A stretch of DNA of 57,529 nucleotides from an uncultured Candidatus Saccharibacteria bacterium (GCA_964620175.1 CAZUIL010000004.1:1-57529); one strand, 5' to 3'; shown: positions 8,317 through 55,253, counted from the stretch's first letter. Notes: generated by a model not told the origin, from the letters alone. Numbers and translations are program-made.

Positions 8317-8356
8317 CGGCCGTATTTTACGCATCCGGCCATGTATAATACGAGCA

Positions 8357-11861: not shown

Positions 11862-11975
11862 CTCCCGCACTTACAAGGTCCGCGTTAAAGTAATCTAAGG
11901 TTACTGCGGCCTGTAAGCAAAAAGGCGGGCACCATTACGGTGTCCGCCGCCAAAACAAAAACAGAAAGAAAGAAA

Positions 11976-12323: not shown

Positions 12324-12335
12324 ACAGGAATTTTT

Positions 12336-14102: not shown

Positions 14103-14124
14103 CGTATAATGAGGAACTAACGGT

Positions 14125-15171
14125 ATGGATTCATCCCTTCAAATATTCGTAGAGACAGAAACGCTCATCAGAATACTCATTCTCGGTTTTATGGGCTTTG
14201 CGCTCAGCATGCTCATTACACCGGTTTATACCACGTTAGCGTACCGGTTTGAGTGGTGGAAAAAGCCCCGAACCACGGCGATAACTGGTGAAGTAGCGAA
14301 AGTATTCGCCAAACTGCACGCCGCTAAACACAAGCGCCTCATACCGACCATGGCGGGCGTTGTATTCGTGGTGACGGTCGGGTTGGTAACTGTGGCGCTC
14401 AATTTAAGCCGGGCAGAGACGTGGCTGCCGGTGGCTGCCTTTGCCGGTGCCGGATTCGTCGGACTCGTTGACGATATTATTAATATCAGGGGTAACGGCA
14501 AAGGGGTGGCGGGTTTACCGTCAAAGCTTAAGCTGTTGCTTATTACGCTCATCGCGCTCATCGGCGGGTGGTTTTTCTATGCCAAGCTGGACGTCAGCAG
14601 CATACACCTGCCGCTTGTTGGCATCGATTGGCATATCGGATGGCTCGTCATTCCCTTGTTCGTACTCGTGGTCGTTGCTACGGCAAATGCGGTTAACATT
14701 ACTGATGGCTTAGACGGGCTGGCGGGCGGACTGGCAGCGATTGCCTTCGGGGCTTACGCGATTATCGCGTTTTTGGAAAACAGGTATGGTATCGCCGGGT
14801 TCTGCATGACAGTGGTCGGGGCGCTCTTGAGTTACACTTGGTTCAATATCTATCCGGCACGATTTTTTATGGGAGACGTCGGGTCGTTCTCTCTAGGGAC
14901 GGCGCTTGGCGTGGTAGCAATGTTGACCGACACCGTCTTGCTGCTGCCGATAATCGGCATTGTGTTCGTGGCTGAAGCCGGGTCAGTCATCCTCCAGGTT
15001 GCCTCAAAGAAGCTGCGGGGCGGCAAACGGATATTCAAGTCTTCGCCGATCCACCATCATTTTGAAGCCAGCGGCTGGCCGGAAACCAAAGTCACCATGC
15101 GGTTTTGGGTTGTGGGGCAAGTTGCCGCCTTCCTCGGCTTAATTATGTTCTTAACTGGGCGATACCTGTAG
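14125..15171 (+). CDS. mraY: phospho-N-acetylmuramoyl-pentapeptide transferase MraY
   Basis: Polytopic protein with NAVNITDGLDGLA and PARFFMGDVGS motifs. Confidence 0.9.
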   Translation: MDSSLQIFVETETLIRILILGFMGFALSMLITPVYTTLAYRFEWWKKPRTTAITGEVAKVFAKLHAAKHKRLIPTMAGVVFVVTVGLVTVALNLSRAETWLPVAAFAGAGFVGLVDDIINIRGNGKGVAGLPSKLKLLLITLIALIGGWFFYAKLDVSSIHLPLVGIDWHIGWLVIPLFVLVVVATANAVNITDGLDGLAGGLAAIAFGAYAIIAFLENRYGIAGFCMTVVGALLSYTWFNIYPARFFMGDVGSFSLGTALGVVAMLTDTVLLLPIIGIVFVAEAGSVILQVASKKLRGGKRIFKSSPIHHHFEASGWPETKVTMRFWVVGQVAAFLGLIMFLTGRYL

Positions 15172-15180
15172 GCGGTGCCA

Positions 15181-16428
15181 ATGAATACGTGGCGCCCCCG
15201 ACGACGTGCGGTTATCGGCGATAAAAGCCAACGCCGACACCGGCCGGACTACTGGCTGATTATTATAATCCTGACACTAATGGTTATCGGGGTTATCGTC
15301 GTCTACGCCATTAGCCCAGGCCTTAGCGTCCAGCGGCAGGTGGGCGAGAACTACTTCGTGAGCAAGCAGATAATCGCTATAGTCTTAGGGTTAGTAGCAT
15401 TCACCATTGTGTCACACACGCCTGTAAGGTGGTGGCGGAATGCTGAAAAGCCGCTGATTATTGCGGCGGCTGTGGCTGCGGTAGCGGTCCAGCTGTTTGG
15501 CGAAGAGGTCAACGGCGCTGCCCGCTGGGTGCATATCGGCGGGTTGTCGTTCCAAGCGGCTGAGTTGATTAAATTCGCGCTGCTGGTTTGGCTGGCGGGG
15601 TTCCTGGTGGAGCGGGCTAGGGGAGGGACGCTGAATGATTACCAAAGGATGTTTAAGCCACTGTTCATCGCTCTCGGGCTTATCGCAGGCGTCGTAGGGT
15701 GGCTGGAAAGCGACCTTGGATCAGCAGGGGTCATGGTAGCGATTATGACGGCGATGGTATTCGTAGCCGGTGTACCGCTGAGGCGCATACTGGCGGTCGG
15801 CGGCGTAGTGCTTCTTGGTACGGTGCTATTGATAGCCAGTAGCCCATATCGCCGGGAGCGCATATTTACGTTCATGAATCCCGAGCAGGATTGTTTGGAC
15901 GCCGGCTACCAGGCCTGCCAGGCACTTATTGCAATCGGATCGGGCGGTATGGTGGGCAAGGGACTGGCGCATAGCGTACAGGCCTACGGTTATCTTCCCG
16001 AGGCGGCGAATGATTCAATCTTTGCGATTTATGCCGAAAAGTTCGGCTTTATCGGCACCATGGTACTGATAGGGCTCTTCATAGCACTGTTCGCACGGCT
16101 GTTCCGTACCCTGGAGCGGGCGCCGGACAGCTATTCGAGGCTCCTGGTCACCGGGGTGTTAGCCTGGTTAAGCACCCAGGCAATCATTAACATGGGAGCA
16201 ATGCTCGGACTCTTGCCGCTTAAAGGCATCACGTTGCCGTTTATAAGTTACGGCGGTACGAGCGTTGTGTTCGTCTCGGCTGCAGCTGGCTTGGCATTCC
16301 AGATTTCACGGTATACTACGTATGGAGTAAACCTTGAACAAAACCCGACAGAAAGAAAACACTATGACAGTAATTCTAGCAGGCGGCGGGTCCGGGGGTC
16401 ATATTACCCCGGTATTAGCAGTCGCTGA
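15181..16428 (+). CDS. ftsW: SEDS-family peptidoglycan polymerase FtsW
   Basis: About 10 TM segments with the FtsW/RodA motifs (..LPEAANDSIFA.., ..LPLKGITLPFISYGGTS..). The C-terminal ~20 codons overlap the murG start. Confidence 0.85.
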   Translation: MNTWRPRRRAVIGDKSQRRHRPDYWLIIIILTLMVIGVIVVYAISPGLSVQRQVGENYFVSKQIIAIVLGLVAFTIVSHTPVRWWRNAEKPLIIAAAVAAVAVQLFGEEVNGAARWVHIGGLSFQAAELIKFALLVWLAGFLVERARGGTLNDYQRMFKPLFIALGLIAGVVGWLESDLGSAGVMVAIMTAMVFVAGVPLRRILAVGGVVLLGTVLLIASSPYRRERIFTFMNPEQDCLDAGYQACQALIAIGSGGMVGKGLAHSVQAYGYLPEAANDSIFAIYAEKFGFIGTMVLIGLFIALFARLFRTLERAPDSYSRLLVTGVLAWLSTQAIINMGAMLGLLPLKGITLPFISYGGTSVVFVSAAAGLAFQISRYTTYGVNLEQNPTERKHYDSNSSRRRVRGSYYPGISSR

Positions 16429-17533
16429 AGCAATCAAAAAAATACGGCCTGACGCCAAACTCGTTTATATTGGCCAGAAGGGCGACGTCTTTACCAATTT
16501 GACACGAGACCATGAGGCAATCGACGAAGTCCGGATGGTCAGCGCTGGTAAGTTCCGCAGATACCATGGATCGGGGTGGAGGCAGCTATTTGACCTGCCA
16601 ACTATTGCGAAGAATTTCAGGGACTTCTTCAGGGTACTTGCAGGTACGTGGCAGAGCTATTCGCTCTTGAAGCGGCTAAGGCCTTCGGTAGTGTTTATTA
16701 AAGGCGGTTACGTGGGAGTGCCTGTCGGTGTTGCCGCAGCATTGCTTGGTGTCCCGTACGTGACTCATGACTCTGACAGTCAGCCTGGACTCGCTAACCG
16801 GCTGGTCAGCCGGTGGGCGGCGAAGCATGCCGTCGCGATGCCGGTAGAGCTGTATCCGTACAGGGAAGAAAAGACTATCAAGGTCGGAGTACCAGTTAGC
16901 CAGGAGTTCCAACTCGTTACTCCAGAAAAGCAGCGGCAATATAAACAGGAAACCGGCATCCCGGAGGATGCTCAATTCGTGGTAGTGACCGGCGGCGGGC
17001 TGGGGGCAATGCGTATTAACCAAGCGTTACTACATTCACTGCCGCAACTGCTGAAGCAACAACCACGGCTGTACGTGGCGGTCTTTACCGGCCGGAAAAA
17101 CTACCGGCTATTTAACGAGCAGCTCGCACAATTGGAGGGCTTTGATAAAAAGCGGGTTATCGTAAGAGATTTTGCAGCCGATATTTATCGCTATATGGGG
17201 GCTGCAGATATTGTCATTACGAGGGCAGGGGCAACCAGCCTGGCTGAGTTGGCAGCTATGGGGAAGGCCAGTATCGTTATACCTAACCCTCTCTTGGCTG
17301 GCGGCCATCAAGTGAAGAACGCGAAAGTGCTGGCGGGCAGGGGAGCGGCTATGATAGTCAGCGAGGACGAATTACGGCAATCACCTGAGCGGCTAGGCGA
17401 CGCCGTTATTGAATTGTTATCAAATCCACAACATACGACACGTTTAGCTGGCGCTTTCCATACGTTGGCCAATCCAAGCGCTGCTGATGAACTCGCAGCG
17501 ATTATAGTAAACCAGGCCAAGGCGCAGGAATAG
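16364..17533 (+). CDS. murG: UDP-N-acetylglucosamine--lipid I transferase MurG
   Basis: MTVILAGGGSGGHITP is the G-loop and a C-terminal GT28 domain is present (ITRAGATSLAEL). ATG 16364 is preferred over the upstream TTG at 16334. Confidence 0.85.
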   Translation: MTVILAGGGSGGHITPVLAVAEAIKKIRPDAKLVYIGQKGDVFTNLTRDHEAIDEVRMVSAGKFRRYHGSGWRQLFDLPTIAKNFRDFFRVLAGTWQSYSLLKRLRPSVVFIKGGYVGVPVGVAAALLGVPYVTHDSDSQPGLANRLVSRWAAKHAVAMPVELYPYREEKTIKVGVPVSQEFQLVTPEKQRQYKQETGIPEDAQFVVVTGGGLGAMRINQALLHSLPQLLKQQPRLYVAVFTGRKNYRLFNEQLAQLEGFDKKRVIVRDFAADIYRYMGAADIVITRAGATSLAELAAMGKASIVIPNPLLAGGHQVKNAKVLAGRGAAMIVSEDELRQSPERLGDAVIELLSNPQHTTRLAGAFHTLANPSAADELAAIIVNQAKAQE

Positions 17534-32373: not shown

Positions 32374-33675
32374 TCAGGGGCGGATCCGTGCCGTCGGTAG
32401 CTCATCCCAGCGGCTGACGTACCGGGGGCTGCGGGTGTGGTGTCGGGGTTCCCATGATGTCCCTAAGCCCTCCGCGGCGAAATGGATCCGGCGTCGGCCA
32501 AACCGGGCGTTGATGGTGTCTACGGCCCGCATAGCACGATGTACTTTCTCATGGTGCTGCACGTCGGTTTGGCCAAACAAATCGGCCTGCAAGTGGTACT
32601 CGGGCACGAAGTCGTATAGCAGTACCCCGGCGCGATGGTACAGCTGCCGGGGACGGTAGATTTCCCTGAGCAAGGCTACTAGTCCATTGGCCAGGGTACC
32701 GGTATCAGCGGTTGGAACCGGCAATTTGGTTTCCTTGCTCCAGCTGCCGTACCCTGGCTTGTGTCTGTTGGTGGTAATGAATACGGCTGCCCGCCTCGCC
32801 AGCTGTCTGGATTTACGGAGGCGGAAAGCTGCTTGCGCGGTAAAGCTTGCAATGGCTGCTTCGAGCACATGGAAGTCTCCGGTGTCTTTCCCGAAGGTCC
32901 TGGTACGGGCAATACTCTTCGCGGCCTTGCCTTCCCTCTCAAGCGGCCAGCAGCTTATGCTGTTCAGTTCGCTCACGAGCTGGCGCCCGTGGATACCCAT
33001 CCAGGCTTGGGCCAGCTGGGGCCTGACCTGGGCTAAATGCCAGGCGGTCATAATGCCCTGCGCCTTTAGCTTGGGAGCCAGCCGCCAGCCGATGCCCCAT
33101 ACATCGCTGATGGGGGTGTTTTTCAGGTAACGCGCAAGCTGGTCCGGCGTGCAGCGCACTGTATCAACCGCCCCACCGTGTTCGGGCTGATGCTTGGCTT
33201 GTTCGGTAGCGATTTTGGCGAGTGTTTTTGTCGGGGCAATCCCCACTGAAACCGGAATGCCGATTTCCCTGAGTATCCTGGCTCTCAGCATGCTTCCCCA
33301 AGCGGCGTAATCACTGATACCGAGCTGGCTGATATCTAAAAACGATTCATCGACCGAGTAAATTTCGATCCGTGGCGTTACCTCGGCGAGGATTGAAGTG
33401 ACCCGGCTGGACATATCGCCATACAGCTCGAAATTAGCGGAAAACCGTACTACCTTGTGCCGCTCAAAAACCGAACGGTATTTAAAAGCCGGCGCGCCCA
33501 TCGGTATGCCGAGGGCTTTTGCTTCATTAGATCGCGCCACGGCGCAGCCGTCGTTGCTGGATAGGACGACCACCGGCTTGCCTTCCAGGTCAGGCCGAAA
33601 TACCCGTTCACAGCTTACGAAGAAGTTGTTGCAGTCGATGAGCGCGAAAACCGGGGGCTGTTTTACGCGGTTCAT
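32374..33675 (-). CDS. umuC: Y-family translesion DNA polymerase, UmuC-like
   Basis: From ATG 33675 the protein reads [57 protein letters not shown]...[11 protein letters not shown], which is collinear with the E. coli UmuC N-terminus. The start overlaps the upstream stop codon as ATGA. Confidence 0.85.
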
Positions 33676-34007
33676 GGCCGGTACCGGTGGATGACAGCAG
33701 TCACCACTCCCCATATTTGGCTGCCAGGGCGGCTGCGGGACAACGTAGAAATGCAAAACTCACCACCGCCCCACCACACTACTAGATCGTTGGCTGACGC
33801 ATCGAGCGCCCGGTCCACGACCGCAATATCACCGTCAAAAACTCCAACATTGCCCCATTGGTCACCAGCGACACCCATGAAAAAGGTGCTGGCCGGCCGT
33901 TTGACCAGTAATTGGTGGATATCAAGTGCCTGCAGGCTGCGGTCGGTTGCGGGATTCGGGAAACCGCTATGGACAGATACGCCGTTAGGTTGGCTTTGTT
34001 CACGCAT
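33672..34007 (-). CDS. UmuD-like S24-fold protein lacking the Ser/Lys catalytic dyad
   Basis: The start is set at ATG 34007 (GAGGAGG 5 nt upstream). The protein aligns with E. coli UmuD from GFPSPA onward, but GDSM is GDQW and TVKKL is CISTL. Confidence 0.7.
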
Positions 34008-37473: not shown

Positions 37474-40068
37474 ATGTTAGGACGCAAACACTCCGCCAAA
37501 CAATTGACATCCGCCGGTGTTGTGCTGCTGCTGCAAGTGCCTCGCACCAACGACAAAAAGGAGCTGGCAGCTGAGCAAATGTTTGCGAGTTTGCATGGCC
37601 TCTTGACAGGCCCCAAAAGCCGGCTGCGCGGCTCGGTGCGGGAGCGCATCAGTTTTGAAATTGCCGTAAAATCCCGGCGGATCGGATTTTTCGTATGGGT
37701 TCCGGAATACCTTAAGAGTTTTGTTGAAGACCAGATTTACGCCCAGTACCCCATGGTGCATATTTCAGAGGTGCCTGATTACAGCCAGGTCGAAGAATCA
37801 CCAGGCACGACAGAGCTGGGCGTGGAGCTCAAGCTGTCCGCGCATGAAGCGTTGCCGATAAAGACCTTTCCGAGTTTCGAGGTTGATCCGTTGGCGGCCA
37901 TTACCGCGACGCTGGCGCAGTTTGAAGAGCATGAAGAGGCATGGCTGCAGATTGTACTGCGCCCGGCACGTGATAACTGGTACCGCAAAAGCGAACGGTA
38001 CGCCACGGGCATCCGTAGCGGCAGCGCCGGCGGGCGCGGGCTGCTGACGGCGCTGTGGACACCCCCCGAGCCGGCCACCGGCAACGCCAAGCTCGCGGAG
38101 TACGAGTCGGCGCGGGCGAACGCTGCCGAAGAAAAAAGCCATAAATTAGCCTACGAGGTAGCTATCCGGGTTATCTATCGCGGCCAGTCTTCCCCTGCCC
38201 AGGCGAAAATGCGCCTCCAGGCTATTGCGGCAAGCTTCAAGCAGTTTAACACTACCTACCTCAACGGCTTTACCCAGCGGTACATTACTAAGCCGCAATT
38301 TGTTATCTCCTACCGGCAGCGGGCATTTGTAAGCCGCGGCTTTGTCTGCAACATCGAGGAGGTCGCCAGCCTGTACCACCTGCCGCATACCAACGTGGAA
38401 ACCCCCAACATCCTGTGGGCAAACGCCAAAACGGCCGAGCCGCCGGCGAACCTGCCGCTTGTTACTGACGCCAACCGTGACACGGTCAGCCCGATAGCCA
38501 TTACCAACTTCCGCGGGCACAATACCATGTTCGGCGTTTCACGTAACGACCGAAACCGCCATCTCTATATCATTGGCCAGACCGGCGTCGGTAAGTCTGG
38601 TTTGCTGGAACTACTGACGATTTCTGATATCTACAGCCCGTATGGTTTCGCGGTCATTGACCCGCACGGTGACTATGCCCAGAATGTGCTCAAGCGGATA
38701 ACGCCTGAACGCAAGGATGACGTCATTTACTTTAACCCGGCGGACACGGATTACCCGATAGCATTCAACCCGATGGAGGTAACTGACCCGAAGCTCAAGA
38801 CCCATACGGCCTCAGAACTCATCGGCGTGCTGAAGCGGATGTTCGAGTCGTGGGGGCCGCGGCTGGAATACATCTTGCGCTATAGCCTGCTGGCACTGCT
38901 TGATTGCCCGGATGCCACCATGCTGGACATTACGCGCATCTTAACCGATAAAAAGTTCCGCGAAGAAGTCCTTACCTACGTTGAGGACCCGGTGGTGAGG
39001 AATTTCTGGACGGTTGAGTTTGCCAGCTGGAACGATAAGTTTGCCGCCGAGGCCGTCGCGCCGGTGCTGAATAAAGTCGGCGCCTTTACCGCCAACCCGA
39101 TTGTGCGCAACATCATCGGCCAGCCGAAAAGCAGCTTTAACATCCGAAAAATCATGGACGAGCGCAAGATTCTCATTGTCAATCTGTCGCGGGGCTTGAT
39201 CGGCGAGGATAACGCTTCCCTGCTCGGTGCGCTGCTGGTCACCAAAATCCAGATGGGGGCGATGAGCCGGGCAGATATCGACCACAAGGACCGCATACCG
39301 TTTTATCTCTATGTCGACGAGTTCCAGAACTTTGCCACCGATTCGTTTGCCACTATCCTCAGCGAGGCACGCAAATATGCCCTGAACCTGACGGTTGCCA
39401 ACCAGTACATTGCCCAAATGAGCCAGGACGTGCGGGACGCCGTCTTTGGCAACGTCGGCTCGATCATCGCGTTCCGCACCAGCGCCGATGACGCCAGGGT
39501 CATGCAAAAGTACTTCGAGCCGCATTTTGAAGAGCACGATCTGGTACATATGCACAACCTGCACTTTGCTATCAGCATGATTATCGAGGGTGAAAAAATG
39601 CCGGCGTTCTCCGCCACTTCGCTTCGGCTACCGGCCTTTGGCGAAGATTACAGCCAACACATAGTTGAAAATAGCCGGCAGCGCTACGCCGCCGGTCGGG
39701 GTAACATCGAGTCATTCATGCATGACCGGTACGTAACCCCGAGCAAAAACGCGACCACTCAGCAACGGTCTGCCCCGCCTGCCCGTCCGGCCGCCAAAAA
39801 GCCGCACGAGCAAAACGCCGGGCCGGCAAACGCTTCGCCTGCCACCTTTGCGCTCAAGGCGGCGTCGCTGCAACAGCCTACCGAAGCCGAGCTTAACCAG
39901 GTGTCTGCCGGCATGCGGGCCGAAGCGGCTGCCGAAACACCAAAAAGAAAGCGCCGCCGGCGCCGGAACAAAAAGAAGGCCGAACCTACCGCTACCAACC
40001 CAGTGCAGCCAAACCAAGCGCAGTCGCCAAATCACTTCGACGAAGAAAACGTCATTAAGTTGCGCTAG
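37474..40068 (+). CDS. TraD/VirD4-like (FtsK/HerA-superfamily) P-loop NTPase with unknown N-terminal domain and K/R-rich tail
   Basis: Walker A LYIIGQTGVGKSG and Walker B-like FYLYVDEFQNF, with a coupling-protein-like C-terminal region. The ~340-aa N-terminal domain is of unknown family. The tail contains PKRKRRRRRNKKK. Confidence 0.65.
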   Translation: MLGRKHSAKQLTSAGVVLLLQVPRTNDKKELAAEQMFASLHGLLTGPKSRLRGSVRERISFEIAVKSRRIGFFVWVPEYLKSFVEDQIYAQYPMVHISEVPDYSQVEESPGTTELGVELKLSAHEALPIKTFPSFEVDPLAAITATLAQFEEHEEAWLQIVLRPARDNWYRKSERYATGIRSGSAGGRGLLTALWTPPEPATGNAKLAEYESARANAAEEKSHKLAYEVAIRVIYRGQSSPAQAKMRLQAIAASFKQFNTTYLNGFTQRYITKPQFVISYRQRAFVSRGFVCNIEEVASLYHLPHTNVETPNILWANAKTAEPPANLPLVTDANRDTVSPIAITNFRGHNTMFGVSRNDRNRHLYIIGQTGVGKSGLLELLTISDIYSPYGFAVIDPHGDYAQNVLKRITPERKDDVIYFNPADTDYPIAFNPMEVTDPKLKTHTASELIGVLKRMFESWGPRLEYILRYSLLALLDCPDATMLDITRILTDKKFREEVLTYVEDPVVRNFWTVEFASWNDKFAAEAVAPVLNKVGAFTANPIVRNIIGQPKSSFNIRKIMDERKILIVNLSRGLIGEDNASLLGALLVTKIQMGAMSRADIDHKDRIPFYLYVDEFQNFATDSFATILSEARKYALNLTVANQYIAQMSQDVRDAVFGNVGSIIAFRTSADDARVMQKYFEPHFEEHDLVHMHNLHFAISMIIEGEKMPAFSATSLRLPAFGEDYSQHIVENSRQRYAAGRGNIESFMHDRYVTPSKNATTQQRSAPPARPAAKKPHEQNAGPANASPATFALKAASLQQPTEAELNQVSAGMRAEAAAETPKRKRRRRRNKKKAEPTATNPVQPNQAQSPNHFDEENVIKLR

Positions 40069-43157: not shown

Positions 43158-44633
43158 ATGGACTTCCTTGATCCGAAAAAGCAACGAGCACATACTATCC
43201 GGCTCTTTATCGGTTACATACTGGTAGCTATTGCTATCGGTATCGGCAGCTTGTTGCTGCTGTACCTTTCGTTTGGGTACGGGTTTGACCGCAAGACCGG
43301 CGAAGTCATACAAAACGGGCTGGTATTTGTTTCGAGCCGGCCGGCATCGGCAGCTATCTATATAAATGGCGAGCGCAATAATGCGCGGACCGACACGCGG
43401 CTTGTCTTGCCGGCCGGGGATTACGAGCTGGAACTGCGCGCCGACGGCTACCGCGGCTGGAAGCGGAGCTTTACGCTGGACGGCGGCGTCGTAGAGCGGT
43501 TTGCGTACCCGTTCCTTTTCCCGAATGAACTAGTACCAGAAGATATGCAGCTTTATGCCGACACCCCTGCCTTTGCGACACAGAGTCCGGACCGGCAGTG
43601 GCTGCTCGTGCAGCAGCCGGGTTCGCTGGGGACGTTTGACATGGTGAACCTTAACGCCCCGGACGAGGCGGTCCAAGCCGTTACGGTGCCGGATGGCGTG
43701 CTGACTGGCGCCGGTGCACAAAGCTGGCAGTTGGTCGAATGGTCAACAGATAACCGCCACGTGCTGCTTAAGCACCTGTTTGAGGGCGGCTTTGAATTTA
43801 TCCTGATAGACCGGGTAATGCCGGAAAACTCATTGAACATTAACTCTGCCTTTAGTGTTAGCCCGACTCAGGTGGTGCTGAGGGATAAGGCTTATGACAA
43901 GTATTACTTCTATGACGCTGCGGCACAGACGTTGCAGTCTGGTGACCTGAGGAACCGGACACTTGTGCCGGTGCTAAGCGGCGTTGCGGCGTATAAAACG
44001 CACGGCAGCGATGTGATTCTTTACGCCACTACCGAATCGGCCTCGCCTGAGAAAGTCAAAATCAACCTGCGGCAAGGCGCTGATACATACACGATCCGTG
44101 AACTGGCTGCCAGCGAGCTCTACCTGCTCGATGTCGCACGCTTTAATGGCGAGTGGTACGTCGCGGCCGGATCGGCCGGCGAAAACAAAGTGTATGTCTA
44201 CCGGGACGCTGTCGGGTTCATTAAACGTCAGCCCGACCGTTTGCCGGTACCGTCCGGTATCTTAAAAGTTGATAATCCAAGGCACCTTTCGTTTTCAGCT
44301 AACGCACGGTTCATCATGGCACACGGCAGCTCAAATGTCGGGGTGTATGACGCTGAGACAGTCCGTCACTACCATTATGCTCTTGGCATGGCGCTGCCGG
44401 CCGAGAAGCAGCTGACTTGGATGGATGGCCACCGCTTAACCGTAGTACATGAGGGCAAAGTCGAAGTGTTTGACTATGACGGCATTAATAGGCAAACCTT
44501 GCTGCAGTCCAACAATGCCTTTGTCCCCTACTTTGACCGTGACTATACCGCTATTTATACCATTGGACCATCGGCCGTTGTGCCGGGAAGATCTGCCCTG
44601 GTTCGTGCGCCGCTAACGGTGGAAGAGCAGTAG
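43158..44633 (+). CDS. PEGA domain protein with beta-propeller-like C-terminal region
   Basis: An N-terminal TM and a PEGA module (SSRPASAAIYINGE....T...LVLPAGDYELELRADGYRGWKRSF), followed by about 330 aa of beta-rich sequence. Confidence 0.6.
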   Translation: MDFLDPKKQRAHTIRLFIGYILVAIAIGIGSLLLLYLSFGYGFDRKTGEVIQNGLVFVSSRPASAAIYINGERNNARTDTRLVLPAGDYELELRADGYRGWKRSFTLDGGVVERFAYPFLFPNELVPEDMQLYADTPAFATQSPDRQWLLVQQPGSLGTFDMVNLNAPDEAVQAVTVPDGVLTGAGAQSWQLVEWSTDNRHVLLKHLFEGGFEFILIDRVMPENSLNINSAFSVSPTQVVLRDKAYDKYYFYDAAAQTLQSGDLRNRTLVPVLSGVAAYKTHGSDVILYATTESASPEKVKINLRQGADTYTIRELAASELYLLDVARFNGEWYVAAGSAGENKVYVYRDAVGFIKRQPDRLPVPSGILKVDNPRHLSFSANARFIMAHGSSNVGVYDAETVRHYHYALGMALPAEKQLTWMDGHRLTVVHEGKVEVFDYDGINRQTLLQSNNAFVPYFDRDYTAIYTIGPSAVVPGRSALVRAPLTVEEQ

Positions 44634-44637
44634 CCGG

Positions 44638-45894
44638 TTACGACGTAAGCCAACTTGTCAGGCGCTGCCAGAGCGATGGTGCGTTGCTTGGAACGATGGC
44701 AGGTTCCAGATCGGCCTCGATTGCCGTACTGGCGACGTTGGCAGCTGGGTCTGGGCTGATTTGCTCGCCGATTACCACTAGACGGTTAATTGTCGTTCCC
44801 GGTGGGTCGCAGGTAATGAGCGTAGCCGTAGCCGGTTTATCGGTGTTGCCCATAACCCATACGTCAGTCGGTTTGACTATTTTCTTGTCGTATACCCTAT
44901 AGACGTAACGTTTACCGCCTTTGGTTAAGTAGAAGGTGTCTCCTGCTTCCAGCCGGCTGAGGAGCACAAAAGCGAACTTGTACTGGCCCCGGTTAAAAAT
45001 GTTATTGCTGGAGTGGCCGAAAATCACCGCGTTTCCCTGTTCTCCTGGTGAAGGTGTTGTCGCGTAGTGCACCACTCCCCGCTCCAGCGCGTTTTGGATT
45101 GCTTTTTCCTCAACTGACGGCTCGTCGTACACCACAGGGATCTCAACATTGATCTTCGGGATTATTATCTTCGGTACCGTGTCTACCACGGCGCTGTTAG
45201 GGTCAATGATTATCGGCGTACTGCTGACGTTTTTGCTTGGCGTAATGAATGGCGCGATAAAGCGCTCGTTAAAAAAGCCGAAAAGCAAGATGGCAATCGC
45301 AACCACGCCGATACCGAGGCCAAACAGTAATGACTGGGCATGCTGCTTGCGGCTGAGTTTTCCCCGTTTCTCAACGCGCCGTACGAGCTGATGTTTGATC
45401 TGGTCGGCTGTCCGGCGAGTAGTCCGGTGCGCTGCCCGTACCTTTGGCGTAACGGATACAGCGGATCGGTGCGCTGCCGGTTGGGCAGGGCTCTGCGGTT
45501 CCGGCGCGGCAGCCGGCCGGTGCTCATGCTCCGACAAACGGGAATGGTTGCGGTAGAACTCCTGCCAGACTTCGTGCTTCTCATTGTCTGGCAAGCCCTG
45601 GTAATACTCATGCCACTTTGTCTGGATTTCAGCGAGCGGCATCCCGGAAGTGCTCAGTTTTTGCATAAATTCCTGGTGTTTGCTGCGCCGTCCCGGTGTG
45701 TGCTTGATTTCTTCGATTTCCTCTGATGCCGGTGGTTCGGCGGCATACAAGGCATCAAGTTTTTTGCGAATTACCTCAATGGCCGCCTGCTGGTCGTTGG
45801 CATCAGTGTTTTCGGGCGGCTTGATAGCACCCTTCTTTTTCGAAGGCAGCGCGTATTGTTTGGCACCGGTGTCTTGAATATCGTCTGGATACAT
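44638..45894 (-). CDS. sortase-family transpeptidase with long charged N-terminal extension
   Basis: The start is set at ATG 45894 because the longer ORF would run through tRNA-Leu. One TM is present (LLFGLGIGVVAIAILLFGFF). The sortase motifs are AVIFGHS (His) and ATLITCDPPGT (TLxTC Cys). Confidence 0.7.
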   Translation of the reverse strand: MYPDDIQDTGAKQYALPSKKKGAIKPPENTDANDQQAAIEVIRKKLDALYAAEPPASEEIEEIKHTPGRRSKHQEFMQKLSTSGMPLAEIQTKWHEYYQGLPDNEKHEVWQEFYRNHSRLSEHEHRPAAAPEPQSPAQPAAHRSAVSVTPKVRAAHRTTRRTADQIKHQLVRRVEKRGKLSRKQHAQSLLFGLGIGVVAIAILLFGFFNERFIAPFITPSKNVSSTPIIIDPNSAVVDTVPKIIIPKINVEIPVVYDEPSVEEKAIQNALERGVVHYATTPSPGEQGNAVIFGHSSNNIFNRGQYKFAFVLLSRLEAGDTFYLTKGGKRYVYRVYDKKIVKPTDVWVMGNTDKPATATLITCDPPGTTINRLVVIGEQISPDPAANVASTAIEADLEPAIVPSNAPSLWQRLTSWLTS

Positions 45895-46024
45895 TGCGTG
45901 ACTAGCTGGATTCGCTAGCTCCCTGGGAGTAAGTATAGTACAATATACCCCTGTAGCATACTTGTTTAAGCATGGCGTTTCAGCTGTCTTGGTATGGGTA
46001 ATTAATAACGGTAGCTGCTTCAAT

Positions 46025-46111
46025 GGCGCGGTGGCGGAACTGGTAGACGCGCCGGACTCAAAATCCGGTGGTAGCAATGCCATGTGGGTTCGAGTCCCAC
46101 CCGCGCCACCA
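46025..46111 (+). tRNA. tRNA-Leu (anticodon CAA), long variable arm, CCA encoded
   Basis: Acceptor GGCGCGG/CCGCGCC, anticodon stem CCGGA/TCCGG with loop CT-CAA-AA, T-arm GTGGG-TTCGAGT-CCCAC. Confidence 0.95.
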
Positions 46112-48682: not shown

Positions 48683-49138
48683 TTAGTTCAAATTCTTCTT
48701 CTCAAACGTCCCGCTGCCCTCGTAAGTTGCCGTCAGGGTATAGACGGCACAGTCATTGGTTGAGTTGTCACAGGCTGTGGTCCCGTCAGCTGCAAACACA
48801 GCGTAGGAGTAAGTGTTGGCTGCCGCCGTAGCCGCTAAGCTAGCGCTGCTTCCCTTTGGATCCTCCAGTGCTTCACTGTCAAGCCCCTTCATGTTGGCTG
48901 CCCGCCAGGTTGCATCATTGATGTTGTCCCGTGTCGGGTACTTGCCATGCTGGGCATAGTAGGCTTCCACCTGCCCATGGATAGCTTTAATGTCAGTTTG
49001 CCGTTCAGTATTCCGGGCTTTCTGTTGGATACCGGTAAAGGTTGTCACAACCAGTGCCGCTAAGATACCGATAACGACGATGACAATAAGCAGCTCCACG
49101 ATAGTGAAACCGCGTTGGTTAGCTTTGTTGACTTGCAT
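48683..49138 (-). CDS. type IV pilin / pseudopilin
   Basis: Class III signal peptide and N-methylation site: MQVNKANQRG-FTIVELLIVIVVIGILAALV. Confidence 0.85.
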   Translation of the reverse strand: MQVNKANQRGFTIVELLIVIVVIGILAALVVTTFTGIQQKARNTERQTDIKAIHGQVEAYYAQHGKYPTRDNINDATWRAANMKGLDSEALEDPKGSSASLAATAAANTYSYAVFAADGTTACDNSTNDCAVYTLTATYEGSGTFEKKNLN

Positions 49139-49253: not shown

Positions 49254-49345
49254 TGGCGGAAGAGGCGGGATTCGAACCCGCGATACGCCTTGCGGCGCAT
49301 ACACGCTTTCCAAGCGTGCTCCTTCAACCACTCGGACACTCTTCC
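49254..49345 (-). tRNA. tRNA-Ser (anticodon GGA), long variable arm, CCA encoded
   Basis: The reverse complement folds with acceptor GGAAGAG/CTCTTCC, anticodon stem CACGC/GCGTG with loop TT-GGA-AA, and T-arm GCGGG-TTCGAAT-CCCGC. Confidence 0.95.
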
Positions 49346-49428: not shown

Positions 49429-50301
49429 ATGACCATAATTGAGCTTGAGGAAGTCAGCAAGTTGTATGGCTTTGGCGATGCCACGACTGTCGCTCTGGAC
49501 GAAGTGACACTGAACGTCAGCCAGGGCGAGTTCGTTGCTGTTATGGGGCCGAGCGGCTGCGGTAAGTCGACGCTGATGAATATCATCGGGCTGCTGGATC
49601 GGCCGACGCATGGCAATTATAAGCTGAACGGCCGCATGGTCACTAAGCTGCGTTCCAGCCAACGGGCCAAATTCCGCCGCGACAAGATCGGCTTTGTCTT
49701 TCAATCGTTCAACCTCTTGCCGCGCCTGAGTGTTTGGGAAAACGTTGCCTTGCCGCTTGCGTATAGGGGCATGTCGCTTGGACGTCGACGCAAATACGCG
49801 TTCGATATGCTGGAACGGGTTGGGCTTGGCGACCGTACGTACTATATGCCGCGCCACCTGAGCGGCGGACAGATGCAGCGGGTAGCTATTGCCCGGGCGC
49901 TCATTAATAATCCGAGCATCATCATTGCTGACGAGCCTACTGGCAACCTTGACAGCGCCTCAAGCCGGCTCGTCATGGAGCTGCTCAGCGAAATTCATCA
50001 AAACGGCAATACCATACTCATTGTTACCCACAACCCTGAGCTTACACGCTACGCCAACCGCGTGGTGTACATGCGTGACGGCACGATTATCCATGACGAG
50101 GCTTCGGCTATCGGCCAGGTGGCGCCGAAGGCCCGCAGTATGCAAATAACGCTGCCAAAGAAAAATGAAGAAGACGATTTGGCCGGTGTTTCAGCGCTCA
50201 TGAAAGCTATTCCGAAAGACGAGACGCCGGCTAAGCGCAAAACGGCGAAGAAGCCAAAGCCAAAAAAACCACGTCAGCGTAAACGGAAGCTTAAACGATG
50301 A
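49429..50301 (+). CDS. ABC transporter ATP-binding protein (MacB/LolD-type) with Lys-rich C-terminal tail
   Basis: Walker [10 protein letters not shown], signature LSGGQMQR and Walker B IIIADEPT. The tail reads [22 protein letters not shown]. Confidence 0.9.
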
Positions 50302-51530
50302 CTTCGCTTGCGCACGGCAATATTAAGATGGCAGTCAGCTCTCTGCGCAGCTCGAAATGGCGCAGCTTCCTTACCATGCTCGGCATCATCATCGGTATTG
50401 TCTCGGTTGTCACTACCATAAGCCTGGGCGAAGGTTTGAAGCGGCAGATGTCACAGCAGGTATCGGAGCTTGGCCAAGACCTTATTACGGTAGTCCCCGG
50501 ACAATTCCCGGGCGAGCAGCCAACCAGCCTGTCTAATTTCCGTCTGTCGCGGGCGACGATTACCAGCACGCTCACCGAAAAGGATATCCCTGCCATTACC
50601 GCCCTGCCGAATGTTAAGGCCGCCGCGCCCTTAAGCTTCATTACATTTAATGCCAGTTATGAAGGCAGGCAGTTAGCGGGTGTAGAAACTATTGCGACAC
50701 ATCCTGCCATGGGGCAAATTCTGGGTGACAAGGTGCAGTACGGCAGCTTTTTTGGCGAAAGCGATACCAACAAGCATGTCGCTATCATCGGCAAACGGGT
50801 TGCTGAGCGGTTATTCAGAGAGAACGTCCCGATGGGCAAGATCTTTACCTTAGGGGGCGAAGAATACATTGTCCGCGGCGTGCTGGCTGAATTTAACGGC
50901 AGCCCGCTCAGCCTGGGCACCGACTTCAACAACACGATTATCATTCCATTCGAGACTGCAAAGCACCAAATTGGCAGCGTACCGCAAATACGGGAAATAC
51001 TGGTAGCCCAGAATCTGCCTAGTGAGACGCCGCAAACTATTGCAGCGGTGTCGCAGTCACTGTTGGCAGCGCATGCCGGCCAAGAGGACTTTACCGTTTT
51101 GCCACAGCGGGACACTGTAGCAGTGTTTAGCGAAGTGCTGGACGTATTGACAGTGACGGTGGCGGCGATTGCCGGCATATCGCTTTTCGTGGCGGGCATC
51201 GGCATTATGAACATCATGCTCGTATCAGTCGCCGAAAGGACGCACGAAATCGGCGTGAGAAAGGCGGTCGGTGCGAACAACCGCCAAATACGCGGCCAGT
51301 TTTTAGTCGAAGCCGTTATGCTGAGCCTGGTCGGCGGTATCATTGGCATCACTTTCTCGATGATTGTCGTGTATTTTATCCGCGTACTTACTGACCTGCA
51401 GCCGGTGGTTACGTGGCCGTCGATTGCGTTGGCCGGCGGCATATCGCTGATCATTGGTACGTTTTTCGGTATCGTGCCGGCTGCGATTGCCGCGCGTAAA
51501 GACCCTATTGAAGCCCTGCGGCACGAATAG
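50298..51530 (+). CDS. ABC transporter permease (MacB-like, FtsX domain)
   Basis: The ATGA start/stop overlap with the ATPase gene suggests translational coupling. An N-terminal TM and a large extracytoplasmic domain are followed by a C-terminal FtsX-type 3-TM bundle. Confidence 0.85.
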   Translation: MTSLAHGNIKMAVSSLRSSKWRSFLTMLGIIIGIVSVVTTISLGEGLKRQMSQQVSELGQDLITVVPGQFPGEQPTSLSNFRLSRATITSTLTEKDIPAITALPNVKAAAPLSFITFNASYEGRQLAGVETIATHPAMGQILGDKVQYGSFFGESDTNKHVAIIGKRVAERLFRENVPMGKIFTLGGEEYIVRGVLAEFNGSPLSLGTDFNNTIIIPFETAKHQIGSVPQIREILVAQNLPSETPQTIAAVSQSLLAAHAGQEDFTVLPQRDTVAVFSEVLDVLTVTVAAIAGISLFVAGIGIMNIMLVSVAERTHEIGVRKAVGANNRQIRGQFLVEAVMLSLVGGIIGITFSMIVVYFIRVLTDLQPVVTWPSIALAGGISLIIGTFFGIVPAAIAARKDPIEALRHE

Positions 51531-51650: not shown

Positions 51651-53312
51651 ATGACACAGCCCACGCTCTTTATAAAAAATAGTAAGAAACTTTTGGTTCT
51701 TGCCGCGCTCCTGTTGGTTGGCAGCAGCCTTGCAGTAAGCCCTGGCGTAGCGACCGAGACAGCCAGTGCACAGGTGAATGCTTGTTCCAGCCTTTCAGAT
51801 ACCTATGGTAAAGAAACCTATACGGTTACCAACTTGCCATCGACGACAACGCCTTACAACGTTTGGGCGCGTATTAAAGCTTCTGGGGAGGCCTCCTTTG
51901 TTATCAGTATTGACGGTGCCGGCGGCAAGCTGTGCGACCAGCGGATCGCCAAGGCTAGCAACAATAGCTATGTCTGGCAAAAGGCATCCGGTACGCTCGC
52001 GTGGAGCGGCGGCCAGGCTCGTGTCCAGTTAGCAGGTGACAAGGATAATGTGTATCTTGACTGTGTCGTGCTGCACGCCAGCAGTACGTTTGCACCTACG
52101 AGCGCCGAGGATTGCAACCAAACAAACGTTGCCCCAACGCCTATCCCCGCGAAATTACAGGCTGAAGAGGCCACAGTCGGTCCGAACGCCGGCACAACCA
52201 ATTGTACGGCGGACATGCCGATTAAGATTGTCGCTGCCAATCAGGCGACCAATAGTGCCGATGGCGGCTATGTCGGCTGCTGGAATAACGTTGGTTCCTA
52301 TGTCCGGTTCAACGTATCAGTTGCAACGGCTGGCGAATACCGCCTGGTTATGCGCTACAAACAGCCGCAATCAGCCAATGTGACGAGAACGCTTAATGTT
52401 GACGGTGTGGGCCAAACTGTAGACTTCCCGCTCTGTCAATGTACTTGGTTTGATGCGAACTGGTCCACGGTTGAAGCGGAAGTGACGCTGTCCCAGGGCA
52501 ACCATACTGTTGAAGTTGTCCGTCCTAACAATTCCGGCCCGATAGACCTTGACTGGGTAGACTTTATCCAGAATATTGAGCCTACCCCATCACCGCCAGC
52601 AACCCCAGTTGTTAATGCACCAGCCAACGGCAGTTCTTTTACCGATACAACCCCCACTTTTAGTGGAACAGGTGAAAATGGCGCAACAGTGAGCGTTAAG
52701 AAAGGCAGCACTGAGCTATGTAACGCTGCGGTTACAGCTGCTGGTCAGTGGCAATGTACGTCCTCAGCCCTTGCAGTGGGTGCCCATACGGTAAGCGTTA
52801 CCCAATCGAACTTTAATGGCACCAGTCCAACGCAAAGCCTAAGCTTCACGATTACATCGACTGCGCCGCCGGTTGACACGCAAAAACCGGTGATTGGCCA
52901 GATCCAAATCCAGGGTTTGCCTTCTGCCCCATCAGACAACGCGATTGTGACATCACTCACGAACATTTCAATTACTGTTAATGCCACCGATAACGTTGGG
53001 GTGGCCTCAGTGGCCGTCTATGTAAACGGCCAGCAAATTAATCCGGTAAGCGGCCGCTACTCTACACCTAACAAGAACGGCGATTATACGTTCCGCATTG
53101 TCGTGCGTGACGCGGCTGGGAACGAGAGCGAGAAGCAATATCCGCTTCGGCTGCGGCATGCTAACATCGACCGCAGTGGCACCGTGAACATCGTTGACCT
53201 TGCAATGGTAGCCCGCGACTGGGGCAAAGCTTCTACGGAAACTGACTTTAACGGTGATGGGACGGTTAACATAGTAGACTTAGCATATGTTGCCTCCAAG
53301 TGGGGGCAATAA
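51651..53312 (+). CDS. secreted multidomain protein: two CBM-like beta-sandwich modules, Ig-like modules, C-terminal type I dockerin
   Basis: Signal peptide; a CBM6/35-like module (LQAEEATV...GYVGCWNNVGSYVRFNVSVATAGEYRLVMRY...LNVDG...IDLDWVDFI); Ig-like modules (..TPTFSGTGENGATVSV..). The C-terminus carries two EF-hand-like dockerin repeats, NIDRSGTVNIVDL and DFNGDGTVNIVDL (about nt 53160-53309). Confidence 0.7.
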   Translation: MTQPTLFIKNSKKLLVLAALLLVGSSLAVSPGVATETASAQVNACSSLSDTYGKETYTVTNLPSTTTPYNVWARIKASGEASFVISIDGAGGKLCDQRIAKASNNSYVWQKASGTLAWSGGQARVQLAGDKDNVYLDCVVLHASSTFAPTSAEDCNQTNVAPTPIPAKLQAEEATVGPNAGTTNCTADMPIKIVAANQATNSADGGYVGCWNNVGSYVRFNVSVATAGEYRLVMRYKQPQSANVTRTLNVDGVGQTVDFPLCQCTWFDANWSTVEAEVTLSQGNHTVEVVRPNNSGPIDLDWVDFIQNIEPTPSPPATPVVNAPANGSSFTDTTPTFSGTGENGATVSVKKGSTELCNAAVTAAGQWQCTSSALAVGAHTVSVTQSNFNGTSPTQSLSFTITSTAPPVDTQKPVIGQIQIQGLPSAPSDNAIVTSLTNISITVNATDNVGVASVAVYVNGQQINPVSGRYSTPNKNGDYTFRIVVRDAAGNESEKQYPLRLRHANIDRSGTVNIVDLAMVARDWGKASTETDFNGDGTVNIVDLAYVASKWGQ

Positions 53313-54100
53313 TGCTACGGCTGGCGAGAGCCCGCATCAATCTGGTATCGAGCATCGTGCTGGCAATTGCTGTAATCGCGGGTTTGGGCCAAGGCCGGCT
53401 TGCAGCCGCAGGCAGTGCCCAATTCAGCTTGGAACCCTCCAGTAGCGCCGTAGAAGACAACCAGTCTTTTAGCGCTGACCTGTTTGTTTCAAGCGAGGCT
53501 AGCATCTATTCGGTAGAGCTTCAGCTAACGGTAGAAAACCTGCGCTACGAGCGGTACGAAGCACCGTCTCCGCCGTCATTTGACTATAACGAAGCGGTGG
53601 AGCCTACAGTGTCAAATGTAAGCATATCGGCTACACATGTGGGCGACAGAAGTTCATCGGGTAAGGTTAAAATCGGCACCCTGCACTTTACGGTCGCCGG
53701 GCAGGCTGGTGAGGCAATCACGCTCGCTGTCACGGGCGCCACAGCAATCGACACGTCGCTGCAGCCGATGCCGGTAACCAGCACGAACCTTTCGTTCCCC
53801 ATTCTTGCTGCCGGCAGCTTACCGGCCAGCGGCCAGTCCCCTGACAGCACGGTAACCATTCCAGAAGAAACGGAAGCTCGGAACGTCGAACAAGGCGAAT
53901 TTGACATTATCAAGTCGTTGGCAGTCGGGCTCATTGAAGGCAGTAATCGCAACCCCGCTTCTGTAGCATCAGGCGAAGCAAACTCCCGTCAAGCGTACCG
54001 GGTACTGGCTGGCGTTTTGTTGGTAGCCAGCTTGTTTGTCCTGGGAGCCGCGGTGCTTAAGAAAAGAAGAAAGAGGCTACTCCACAAGTTAGCGGGATAA
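53312..54100 (+). CDS. membrane-anchored cohesin-like protein A
   Basis: The start overlaps the upstream stop as TAATG. A signal peptide is followed by a ~135-aa beta-rich module (FSLEPSSS...SFSADLFVSS...SGKVKIGTLHFTVAGQAGEAITLAV) with the cohesin-like pattern, a linker, a C-terminal TM and KKRRKR. Confidence 0.5.
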   Translation: MLRLARARINLVSSIVLAIAVIAGLGQGRLAAAGSAQFSLEPSSSAVEDNQSFSADLFVSSEASIYSVELQLTVENLRYERYEAPSPPSFDYNEAVEPTVSNVSISATHVGDRSSSGKVKIGTLHFTVAGQAGEAITLAVTGATAIDTSLQPMPVTSTNLSFPILAAGSLPASGQSPDSTVTIPEETEARNVEQGEFDIIKSLAVGLIEGSNRNPASVASGEANSRQAYRVLAGVLLVASLFVLGAAVLKKRRKRLLHKLAG

Positions 54101-54179
54101 CCGCTTAAAAAGTATTTCCCCTTATGCCTAATTTCATATATTATTTCAGTAAGTTCCAATAAGCACCAGTAACAAACAT

Positions 54180-55253
54180 ATGAGAAGACAACTACTAAGC
54201 ACATCATTCCGCAATCGACTTATCACCTTATTTGCTATACCGCTGGCGGCCGTGGGCTTATTAGTGGCTTCAGTACAACCGGCACACGCGGCCGGCTCTG
54301 TAACATTTACGTTGGAAGCGTCCACTAACTCACCGCAGCCGAACGCCAACTTCACCGTAAACGTATTTGTGACAACCAATACCGCTACGAATGTCTTCGC
54401 TGTCCAGGTGCCGCTTACCTTTACCAACGCAACGAACCAAGGGTATTCACCGAACCCGGGCGCGTTTACCGGTCTGAACAACGCGTTTGTCAATACCTCG
54501 ACTGCCCTGGAAATAGGCGCTACGTACGCCGGCGGCAGCAGCGGCTCCGGCAAAGTACGTATCGGAACCATAAATTTGAAGGCAGGCTCTACGCCAGGCC
54601 AGACAATCGGTGTCACCTTTGGCTCAGTGATTGCCCAAGACCCTAATATAGAATCAATGGGTACGAGCGCTAATTCGGCTACGTATACCATCGCCTCTCC
54701 GCCGAGCACTCCTCCGCCATCGACACCTCCCCCTCCACCTTCCGGCGGCGGTTCGCCGAACCCAACACCGCCTTCTTCACCGGGTGGTGGGACAACGCCT
54801 CCAAGCAACAGCTCGGGTGGCTCTAGTCAATCCGGCGGTACACCAAATGGCAATACCACGGTTACTGTCTCTAATCCTGATCCCCAGTCAATCAGCCAGG
54901 AGGAGTATGATGCCCTGCAAGCTGATGCGGTCAGCCAGGTGGATGCAGCTTCCGCGGAAGGCAGTACCGTCTCCTCTACGCTGGCAAGCGGCAAAAGTTT
55001 AACCACGTGGATAATGGCCTTGTTGGGACTGCTCGTGCTTGGTGCCGGCGGCGCCTTCGCTATCGTGCTCCGCAAAAAACGTAAGGCCTCACTTGCCTTT
55101 TTTGGTGTTGATAAGCACCAGCACGGCGGTATTGCGCCTAACCCGACTGTCGTAACCCCAGAAAACAACCCGGCCAGTCCGCAAAACCAACAGCAAAGCA
55201 ACTATCCTGGTTTTGTCTATACTCCCCAAAACGATGACAAGAAGCCAAAATAG
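54180..55253 (+). CDS. membrane-anchored cohesin-like protein B with Pro/Ser/Gly linker and cytoplasmic tail
   Basis: Signal peptide (..VQPAHA) and a module paralogous to protein A (VTFTLEAS...NFTVNVFVTT...SGKVRIGTINLKAGSTPGQTIGVTF). A PSTPPPSTPPPPPSGGG linker, a TM (IMALLGLLVLGAGGAFAIVL), RKKRK and a ~65-aa tail follow. Confidence 0.5.
   Translation: MRRQLLSTSFRNRLITLFAIPLAAVGLLVASVQPAHAAGSVTFTLEASTNSPQPNANFTVNVFVTTNTATNVFAVQVPLTFTNATNQGYSPNPGAFTGLNNAFVNTSTALEIGATYAGGSSGSGKVRIGTINLKAGSTPGQTIGVTFGSVIAQDPNIESMGTSANSATYTIASPPSTPPPSTPPPPPSGGGSPNPTPPSSPGGGTTPPSNSSGGSSQSGGTPNGNTTVTVSNPDPQSISQEEYDALQADAVSQVDAASAEGSTVSSTLASGKSLTTWIMALLGLLVLGAGGAFAIVLRKKRKASLAFFGVDKHQHGGIAPNPTVVTPENNPASPQNQQQSNYPGFVYTPQNDDKKPK

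Follow-up and report, generated by a model that had tools for sequence, protein, structure and literature searches.

In R. flavefaciens the wall-anchored cohesin ScaE holds CttA, which is not an enzyme and has two carbohydrate-binding modules, and so sticks the cell to polysaccharide, and OlpA and OlpC of C. thermocellum use one type-I-like cohesin on a cell-bound protein to capture a single dockerin protein at the surface. Non-cellulosomal pairs are found on the glycoside-hydrolase toxins of C. perfringens (2jh2, 2vo8, 2w1n and 2ozn/2jnk). The adjacent genes for ClcC and ClcD of Cellulosilyticum lentocellum encode a single cohesin and a single dockerin, and formation of the heterodimer has been demonstrated (PMC13487519). 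Here we describe a locus in DNA of an uncultured Candidatus Saccharibacteria bacterium (GCA_964620175.1 CAZUIL010000004.1:1-57529; the whole stretch of 57,529 nucleotides (nt) is called the window) in which three genes, g1, g2 and g3, encode a dockerin-bearing, lectin-like protein and two membrane-anchored proteins with a predicted cohesin fold. We favor a model, to which we give a probability of about 0.55, in which the dockerin of g1 would be held by the cohesin-fold modules of g2 and g3, the three genes forming a minimal non-cellulosomal display cassette of a Saccharibacterium.

The wider question is by what means ultrasmall Patescibacteria select their host bacteria and fasten onto them. 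The only genetic screen so far identified a dockerin-domain envelope protein of Southlakia epibionticum, SEML1_0315, as essential for epibiotic growth, and its authors speculate that the protein targets host glycans; they name no receptor or cohesin partner for it and nowhere mention cohesins (PMC10633639). Our literature search likewise turned up no account of a cohesin partner, either for Saccharibacteria or for the candidate phyla radiation. The locus described here offers a cheaply testable hypothesis, namely that proteins of cohesin fold, anchored in the membrane, serve as clips for lectins with a dockerin tail.

The g1 dockerin and the predicted fold of g2 and g3

Judged by its sequence, the C-terminal tail of g1 is a genuine dockerin. 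An earlier note on this DNA had recognized a type I dockerin signature there, and the tail scores 25.4 bits (E 1.6e-5, amino acids (aa) 506-547) against Pfam Dockerin_1 (PF00404), above the curated gathering cut-off of 22.9 bits. Its calcium loops read NIDRSGTVNIVDL (53163..) and DFNGDGTVNIVDL (53244..). Given as NIDRSGTVNIVD and DFNGDGTVNIVD, they lie 27 residues apart and have the pattern of a two-segment type I dockerin, that is, tandem segments of ~22 residues, each with a 12-residue EF-hand-like loop D/N-x-D/N-x-D/N/S-G-x-I/V-D/N-x-x-D followed by a helix. The 22-residue segments, NIDRSGTVNIVDLAMVARDWGK and DFNGDGTVNIVDLAYVASKWGQ, are identical at 13 of 22 positions, a near-symmetry that would permit a dual binding mode of the kind known for type I dockerins. 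Searched alone against PDB sequences, the tail has four dockerins as its top matches (2y3n_B, whose alignment spans both segments, 2ccl_B, 1ohz_B and 2jnk_A), with calmodulin EF-hands next. A profile of five orthologous tails also finds dockerins best (2b59_B, 7.8e-7; 2jnk_A, 9.1e-7; then 3kcp, 5g5d and 4fl4_A), and 2jnk_A, a non-cellulosomal C. perfringens dockerin, aligns over both loops of the profile. A six-frame motif scan found the g1 loop pair to be the only such motifs in the window, which encodes a single dockerin.

The genes g2 and g3 encode paralogous proteins, which align by BLASTP at E 9e-11 with 27% identity across the module. Each has an N-terminal hydrophobic signal segment, an all-beta module of ~135 aa, a linker, a single C-terminal hydrophobic helix and a cluster of lysine and arginine residues; both the paralogy and this topology had been proposed in the earlier note, and the hydropathy scan agrees with the latter. 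Confident AlphaFold2 models built with an 11-sequence alignment predict that the two modules have a cohesin fold, a nine-stranded beta-sandwich jelly-roll. In Foldseek searches of the PDB with these models, the top ~42 matches of the g2 module, headed by 2jh2_A, are cohesins (E 3e-8 to 1e-5, TM-score 0.75-0.84), save for one CLIPPER adhesin domain in 21st place. Cohesins also lead for the g3 module, with 6kgc_A first (TM-score 0.83, E 6e-8) and then 2jh2, 5lxv, 4dh2, 2xdh, 1g1k and 1aoh. Over both modules, the cohesins in the top ~40 also include 6kge, 5nrm, 2zf9 and 2b59, at sequence identities of 9-17%. The cohesin matches comprise types I, II and III, and among them are the single-cohesin surface anchors OlpC (4dh2), OlpA (3ul4) and ScaE (2zf9). 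The earlier note's reading of both modules as cohesin-like is thus upheld by structural similarity, but the significant match to the Pfam Cohesin hidden Markov model (HMM) that the note had set as a check is absent.

The two paralogues differ in what lies beyond the module (Table 1). The ~97-aa linker of g3 is probably a wall-spanning spacer, and g3 continues past its transmembrane helix into a cytoplasmic tail that g2 lacks. Across the family, an acidic (E/Q)EE(Y/F) motif stands just outside the helix (window 54930-54995; alignment A1), and a 'P-x-I-I-x-P'-like motif stands near the end of the cytoplasmic tail, with PGFVYTP as its g3 counterpart (window 55200-55250). Neither g2 nor g3 has a Pfam match to an SLH domain or a correctly placed LPXTG-type sortase signal. 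We considered an LPASG sequence in g2 (aa 170-174, 53819-53833) as a sortase site and rejected it, since it lies 57 residues before the transmembrane helix and is not conserved in relatives.

Apart from its dockerin, g1 carries binding and Ig modules, and a Pfam scan found no catalytic domain in it. The Sec-type hydrophobic segment at its N terminus (aa 11-35, hydropathy scan) and its Ig-like modules, both above the Pfam cut-offs, agree with the signal peptide and Ig modules described in the earlier note, which had also described two CBM-like modules. The second of these is well supported, with PDB sequence matches to the CBM35 chains 2w47, 2w1w and 3wnp (E ~5e-7) in addition to the Pfam matches of Table 1. 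The first does not reach that standing: its matches to CBM_6 (E 0.031) and, in relatives, to GH115_C (6.3e-5) are weak, and it has no relative among PDB sequences. Four of its residues, C45, Y69, W72 and W109, are invariant across alignments A4 and A5. All relatives conserve a Big_7-like module and the sequence 'NGDY...RLRH' immediately 5' of the dockerin.

Linkage of the two gene families and the alternatives

An exhaustive phmmer search of 1.84 billion representatives gave 12 matches, nine of which are further proteins of the same architecture. We compared 10 independent loci, the window and the contigs of these nine family members. In nine of the 10, the cohesin-like gene directly adjoins a gene of the g1-like family, the two overlapping by as much as 17 nt or standing as much as 24 nt apart, so that the co-conservation on which the earlier proposal depended is found in related genomes. 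Common to the partner proteins (alignments A3 and A4) are a signal peptide, a Cys-bracketed N-terminal module as in g1, Ig/PKD-like repeats, a Big_7-like module with 'NGDY...(I/V)RLRHPD' at its end, and a dockerin-like tail of two segments. The conserved tail 'NGDY..RLRHPD.NRSG.V' is present in eight of the nine adjoining genes; in the ninth, at locus L091, the contig end cuts the gene before the tail. Both gene orders occur, dockerin before cohesin in the window, L003, L087 and L089 (start-stop overlaps of 1 to 13 nt) and cohesin before dockerin in L002, L004/5, L006, L088 and L091 (17-nt overlap to 24-nt gap), and start and stop codons overlap in five loci. This conserved linkage moves the finding from resemblance to system.

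One locus combines the two modules in a single protein. Upstream of the family member P0002, the dockerin-tailed protein encoded at L003:2-916 (Logan SRR13378642) itself bears a module that matches the cohesin-like family HMM at E 2.8e-9, and the product of a third gene, from 1849 on, resembles a further cohesin-like protein at its beginning. By analogy, this layout appears adaptor-scaffoldin-like, as is typical of real cohesin-dockerin networks. The dockerin-bearing proteins of all loci are without a catalytic domain, and the window holds no further cohesin-like modules beyond the single ones of g2 and g3, and no multi-cohesin scaffoldin. The cassette is not a cellulosome, as its dockerins are not on enzymes and a multi-cohesin scaffoldin is absent.

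Secreted proteins with an N-terminal 'EAESG.L.G....D..ASGG.YL.F' sequence are encoded 3' of the cassette in three loci (L002:7341-10611, L006:8632-12416 and L088:9375-10943). One has a weak Alpha-L-AF_C match (E 1.9e-4), none has a dockerin, and they may be glycan-active partners.

Such neighbors bear on the possibility that the cassette serves glycan foraging, as a cellulosome-like system reduced to a minimum, where a tethered lectin would keep polysaccharide of environmental or host origin at the surface for nearby secreted hydrolases and uptake. CBM35 and CBM6 modules are typical of polysaccharide-degrading systems, the secreted proteins just described are glycosidase-like by weak matches, the window encodes a GH1 enzyme, and the minimal ClcC/ClcD pair boosts cellulase activity (PMC13487519). 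However, the dockerin-bearing proteins are non-catalytic in every locus, the glycosidase-like neighbors have no dockerin with which to join a complex, the window contains only one dockerin, and the GH1 gene lies 42 kb from the cassette. We regard foraging as an unlikely primary role. Since none of the loci has an enzyme as cargo, attachment to glycan by a cohesin-held lectin is the most economical role to propose.

Several observations weigh against a cohesin-dockerin system. Pfam Cohesin (PF00963) has no match in g2, g3 or the nine relatives even at E<=1, neither the single g2 and g3 sequences nor the family profile finds a cohesin among PDB sequences, and an hhalign comparison of the family profile with three true cohesin repeats gives a probability of 0.6%, which is not significant. 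The lone weak sequence link to cohesins is P0011 (E 4.6e-4, summed over three repeats and covering two strands), a genuine triple-cohesin protein (Pfam Cohesin 9.9e-19) whose match is confined to the 'SGKVKIGTLHFTVAGQAGE' strands. By these searches g2 and g3 fall outside the Pfam cohesin family. The cohesin-type beta-sandwich is also found in other surface domains, and the CLIPPER adhesin domain is the best non-cohesin match, at rank ~20 and with a lower TM-score. On the dockerin side, two tails pass the Dockerin_1 cut-off, those of g1 and of L089 (34.7 bits); that of L004 falls just under it (21.5 bits), those of L002, L003, L006 and L088 have no Pfam Dockerin_1 match, and the second calcium loop is degenerate in some relatives (L006, L004). 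Locus L090 is without a dockerin neighbor on its 3.2-kb contig; the gene that follows (1468-2379) encodes a secreted protein in which weak matches mark one PKD-like and one cytochrome-b5-like (HPGG) segment. The family is also very rare and cannot be a general attachment device of Saccharibacteria, so that the cassette can be no more than one among several ways of attaching. Finally, the cohesin-dockerin interface is a proposal drawn from fold and linkage, and a host glycan is purely what we infer the target to be.

Some of these observations would be expected if g2 and g3 were generic beta-sandwich surface or stalk proteins that had the cohesin topology by chance and bound no dockerin. Their adjacency to g1 would then reflect co-regulation of envelope proteins, and the dockerin-like tail would bind a wall polymer or another protein, or use calcium for stabilization only. 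The absence of a cohesin signal at the sequence level, whether by Pfam, PDB profile or hhalign, the CLIPPER adhesin and integrin domains further down the Foldseek lists, the degenerate second loops and the Southlakia dockerin protein without a cohesin-like neighbor all fit such a view. It is hard to reconcile, however, with cohesins making up the top ~40 structural matches of both modules at TM-scores up to 0.84, the best non-cohesin being clearly weaker. It also sits poorly with a linkage that involves one partner family specifically, in either gene order, and in five loci has start and stop codons that overlap, and with the union of cohesin-like and dockerin modules in one protein at L003. 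We consider this explanation improbable, about as much so as foraging, and favor a cohesin-dockerin pair.

It is very improbable that the cassette and the MacB-type ABC pair upstream form one export or processing unit in which the ABC proteins secrete or release g1: although MacB-type pumps can export proteins and the pair lies on the same strand with a 120-nt gap (51530 -> 51651), that gap is AT-rich and intergenic in appearance, the N-terminal hydrophobic segments of g1, g2 and g3 are of the ordinary Sec type, and none of the nine other loci has an ABC gene beside the cassette, the identical Logan copy of the window being the one further case. The pair that the earlier note placed upstream is indeed there, but its membership of the system is largely refuted, as it is not conserved with the cassette.

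Layout and surroundings of the locus

The coordinates of the three genes and their modules are collected in Table 1. The open reading frames (ORFs), the TAATG overlap and the 79-nt gap of the earlier note are all present. The ATG of g2 at 53312 begins with the A that it has in common with the g1 stop codon and is preceded by a GGGGG Shine-Dalgarno-like run; it is the start in the 262-aa public gene call, and a GTG at 53300 is the alternative start in the ORF listing. The 79 nt between g2 and g3 are 54101..54179. The unit ends at 55253, because the genes 3' of g3 are on the opposite strand. A promoter and terminator scan found no more sites than in shuffled sequence and is uninformative on operon structure.

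Table 1. Positions in the window of the three genes, their modules and the upstream ABC pair
Feature	Position	Strand	Description and basis
g1	51651..53312	+	553 aa; ORF and exact public gene call; proposed cargo: secreted, non-catalytic, dockerin-bearing, lectin-like
g1 N-terminal Cys-bracketed module	51771..52145	+	aa ~41-165; kept in dockerin proteins of other loci (alignments A4/A5)
g1 CBM35/CBM6 module	52239..52568	+	aa 197-306; Pfam CBM_35 E 3.8e-10, CBM_6 E 3e-7, both above cut-off
g1 Ig-like modules	52641..53096	+	Big_13 (aa 331-401, 5.9e-16) and Big_7 (aa 426-482, 2.9e-9); Pfam, both above cut-off
g1 C-terminal dockerin	53148..53309	+	two 22-residue segments; calcium loops 53163..53198 and 53244..53279
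g2	53312..54100	+	262 aa; ORF, public gene call; membrane-anchored protein 1 with predicted cohesin fold
g2 cohesin-fold module	53405..53812	+	aa 32-167; AlphaFold2 (AF2) pLDDT 87.4, pTM 0.82; ten predicted beta strands
g2 C-terminal transmembrane helix	53990..54064	+	hydropathy scan; followed by KKRRKR
g3	54180..55253	+	357 aa; ORF; membrane-anchored protein 2 with predicted cohesin fold, paralogue of g2
g3 cohesin-fold module	54288..54704	+	aa 37-175; AF2 pLDDT 90.4, pTM 0.84; predicted all-beta
g3 linker	54705..54995	+	~97 aa, Pro/Ser/Thr/Gly-rich; acidic juxtamembrane 'SQEEYDAL' at its end; sequence and family alignment A1
g3 transmembrane helix and tail	54996..55250	+	helix to 55076 (hydropathy), RKKRK, ~58-aa cytoplasmic tail, terminal 'PGFVYTP'
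ABC pair	49429..51530	+	ABC_tran, then MacB_PCD+FtsX (Pfam)

Close copies of the locus are few. An 8.2-kb stretch recurs, identical, on one Logan contig, and in clustering at 90% identity the products of g1, g2 and g3 are singletons, except for one 173-aa fragment grouped with g3. A scan of GTDB representative genomes with g1 found no relative, nor did two JGI metagenome scans, one with the dockerin-protein alignment and one with the cohesin-like alignment. Word-indexed searches with the g3 module and with the alignments of the N-terminal module and the cohesin-like family returned nothing or one fragment, and they missed known members too, which points to an effect of the index rather than absence. 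A literature search for the sequencing runs behind the contigs gave no information on habitat. One apparent relative, P0003, a repeat protein of 1100 aa, was rejected as a low-complexity or repeat artefact of nine short stretches.

The earlier view that the organism is of the Saccharibacteria type agrees with a comparison of TopA. The window protein is 67-68% identical to that of metagenome-assembled genomes (MAGs) labelled Ca. Parcubacteria or Ca. Saccharibacteria, 61-62% to that of Saccharimonadales MAGs and 57% to that of Nanosynbacter TM7-087, with other phyla lower, and by this measure the genome groups with Saccharibacteria. Gene order gives a similar indication for other carriers. Locus L088 (796-12913) reads ParA-ParB-SPase I-LCP-250 aa-HtrA-[cassette]-PrmC-RF1, and SEML1_0183-0190 of Southlakia epibionticum have exactly this order without the cassette between HtrA and PrmC (Cell 2023 supplement). 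L002 and L004 have the left flank in common with L088 and Southlakia. Because of this synteny, L088, L002 and L004 would be Saccharibacteria too, and the cassette appears to be an accessory insertion.

Around the cassette, a type IV pilin-like protein with a methylation motif at its N terminus (48683-49138, - strand; N_methyl Pfam 1.5e-8) is encoded just upstream of the ABC pair, and a tRNA-Ser lies at 49254-49345. An 864-aa protein (37474-40068, + strand) has a partial TraD-type coupling-protein match (E 2.3e-13, far under the family cut-off) and might be connected with the type IV secretion system that is reported to be essential in Southlakia. At 43158-46083 a PEGA-domain protein (491 aa, + strand) adjoins an unusually long sortase-family protein (481 aa, - strand; sortase domain aa ~303-443). 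A compact division and cell-wall (dcw) cluster occupies 10929-17533 (+ strand), with MraW, a small ORF, a PBP2/FtsI-like protein, MraY, FtsW and MurG. Other products encoded in the window are GH1 (8276-9616), a UmuC-like Pol V (32374-33756), TopA, DprA, Der, two histidine kinases and GltX.

Proposed mechanism and comparison with known systems

How the three products might work together can be envisioned from these features. In the scenario that we favor, signal peptides would direct the export of g2 and g3, the single C-terminal helix would keep them in the cytoplasmic membrane as type I membrane proteins, and the flexible linker, long and Pro/Thr-rich in g3, would bring the cohesin-fold module through and beyond the wall. 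The calcium-binding dockerin of secreted g1 would then plug non-covalently, and presumably in a calcium-dependent manner, into one or both of the modules. A non-catalytic glycan-binding head, composed of the N-terminal module, the CBM35 and the Ig spacers, would thereby face outward, where its likely role would be attachment to polysaccharide. Since cultured members of the phylum are epibionts, a glycan of the host cell envelope would be a plausible target, and we offer adhesion to it only tentatively, as a possible rather than an expected function. We further speculate that two anchors differing in spacer length and tail might set the lectin at different heights.

The receptor half of this putative pair escapes Pfam and other sequence searches, and surveys that count 'cohesin' and 'dockerin' domains would for that reason score such genomes as carrying orphan dockerins. 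If binding is real, the candidate phyla radiation would join the groups with cohesin-dockerin biology, here with a new type of anchor, a transmembrane helix plus cytoplasmic tail, and the locus would provide a very divergent pair for protein-engineering toolkits. A broader and more doubtful idea is that Saccharibacteria carry families of membrane-anchored cohesin-fold receptors unseen by standard models, which together with dockerin-tailed lectins would constitute swappable, host-range-setting cassettes such as the htrA-prmC insertion, each deciding which glycan of the host surface is gripped. Such receptors might be the missing kind of partner for the Southlakia dockerin protein, and their tail and juxtamembrane motifs could couple capture to an internal response.

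Comparison with described systems places the locus apart from each of them. SEML1_0315 comes from the same phylum and is, like g1, a secreted multi-Ig protein with a dockerin domain; it differs in its length of 927 aa and in its neighbors, an alpha/beta hydrolase and tRNA-Glu. The ClcC/ClcD locus has the same simple arrangement of one cohesin gene beside one dockerin gene, whereas its proteins are annotated by standard models, bear enzymes and enhance cellulase activity, and its abstract states no membrane anchor (PMC13487519). In the C. perfringens pairs both modules are on large secreted enzymes that form soluble complexes, in contrast to a membrane-anchored cohesin with a non-catalytic partner.

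The single-cohesin surface anchors offer closer parallels. OlpA and OlpC, whose structures are among the best Foldseek matches of g2 and g3, are anchored to the wall by SLH repeats, their cohesins match Pfam Cohesin and their ligands are enzymes, whereas g2 and g3 are anchored by a C-terminal transmembrane helix, with a cytoplasmic tail in g3, do not match that family and adjoin a gene whose product has no catalytic domain. By analogy, the closest functional counterpart is the ScaE-CttA pair, in which the captured protein is also a non-enzymatic carbohydrate binder. ScaE nonetheless belongs to the type III cohesins, pairs with an X-dockerin and is anchored by an LPXTG sortase signal, where g2 and g3 have a transmembrane helix and no proper sortase signal, and it belongs to the large cellulosome of a free-living fiber degrader. 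The locus described here differs from these systems in lying outside the Pfam cohesin family, in using a transmembrane-helix anchor with juxtamembrane and tail motifs instead of SLH repeats or a sortase signal, and in belonging to a different phylum.

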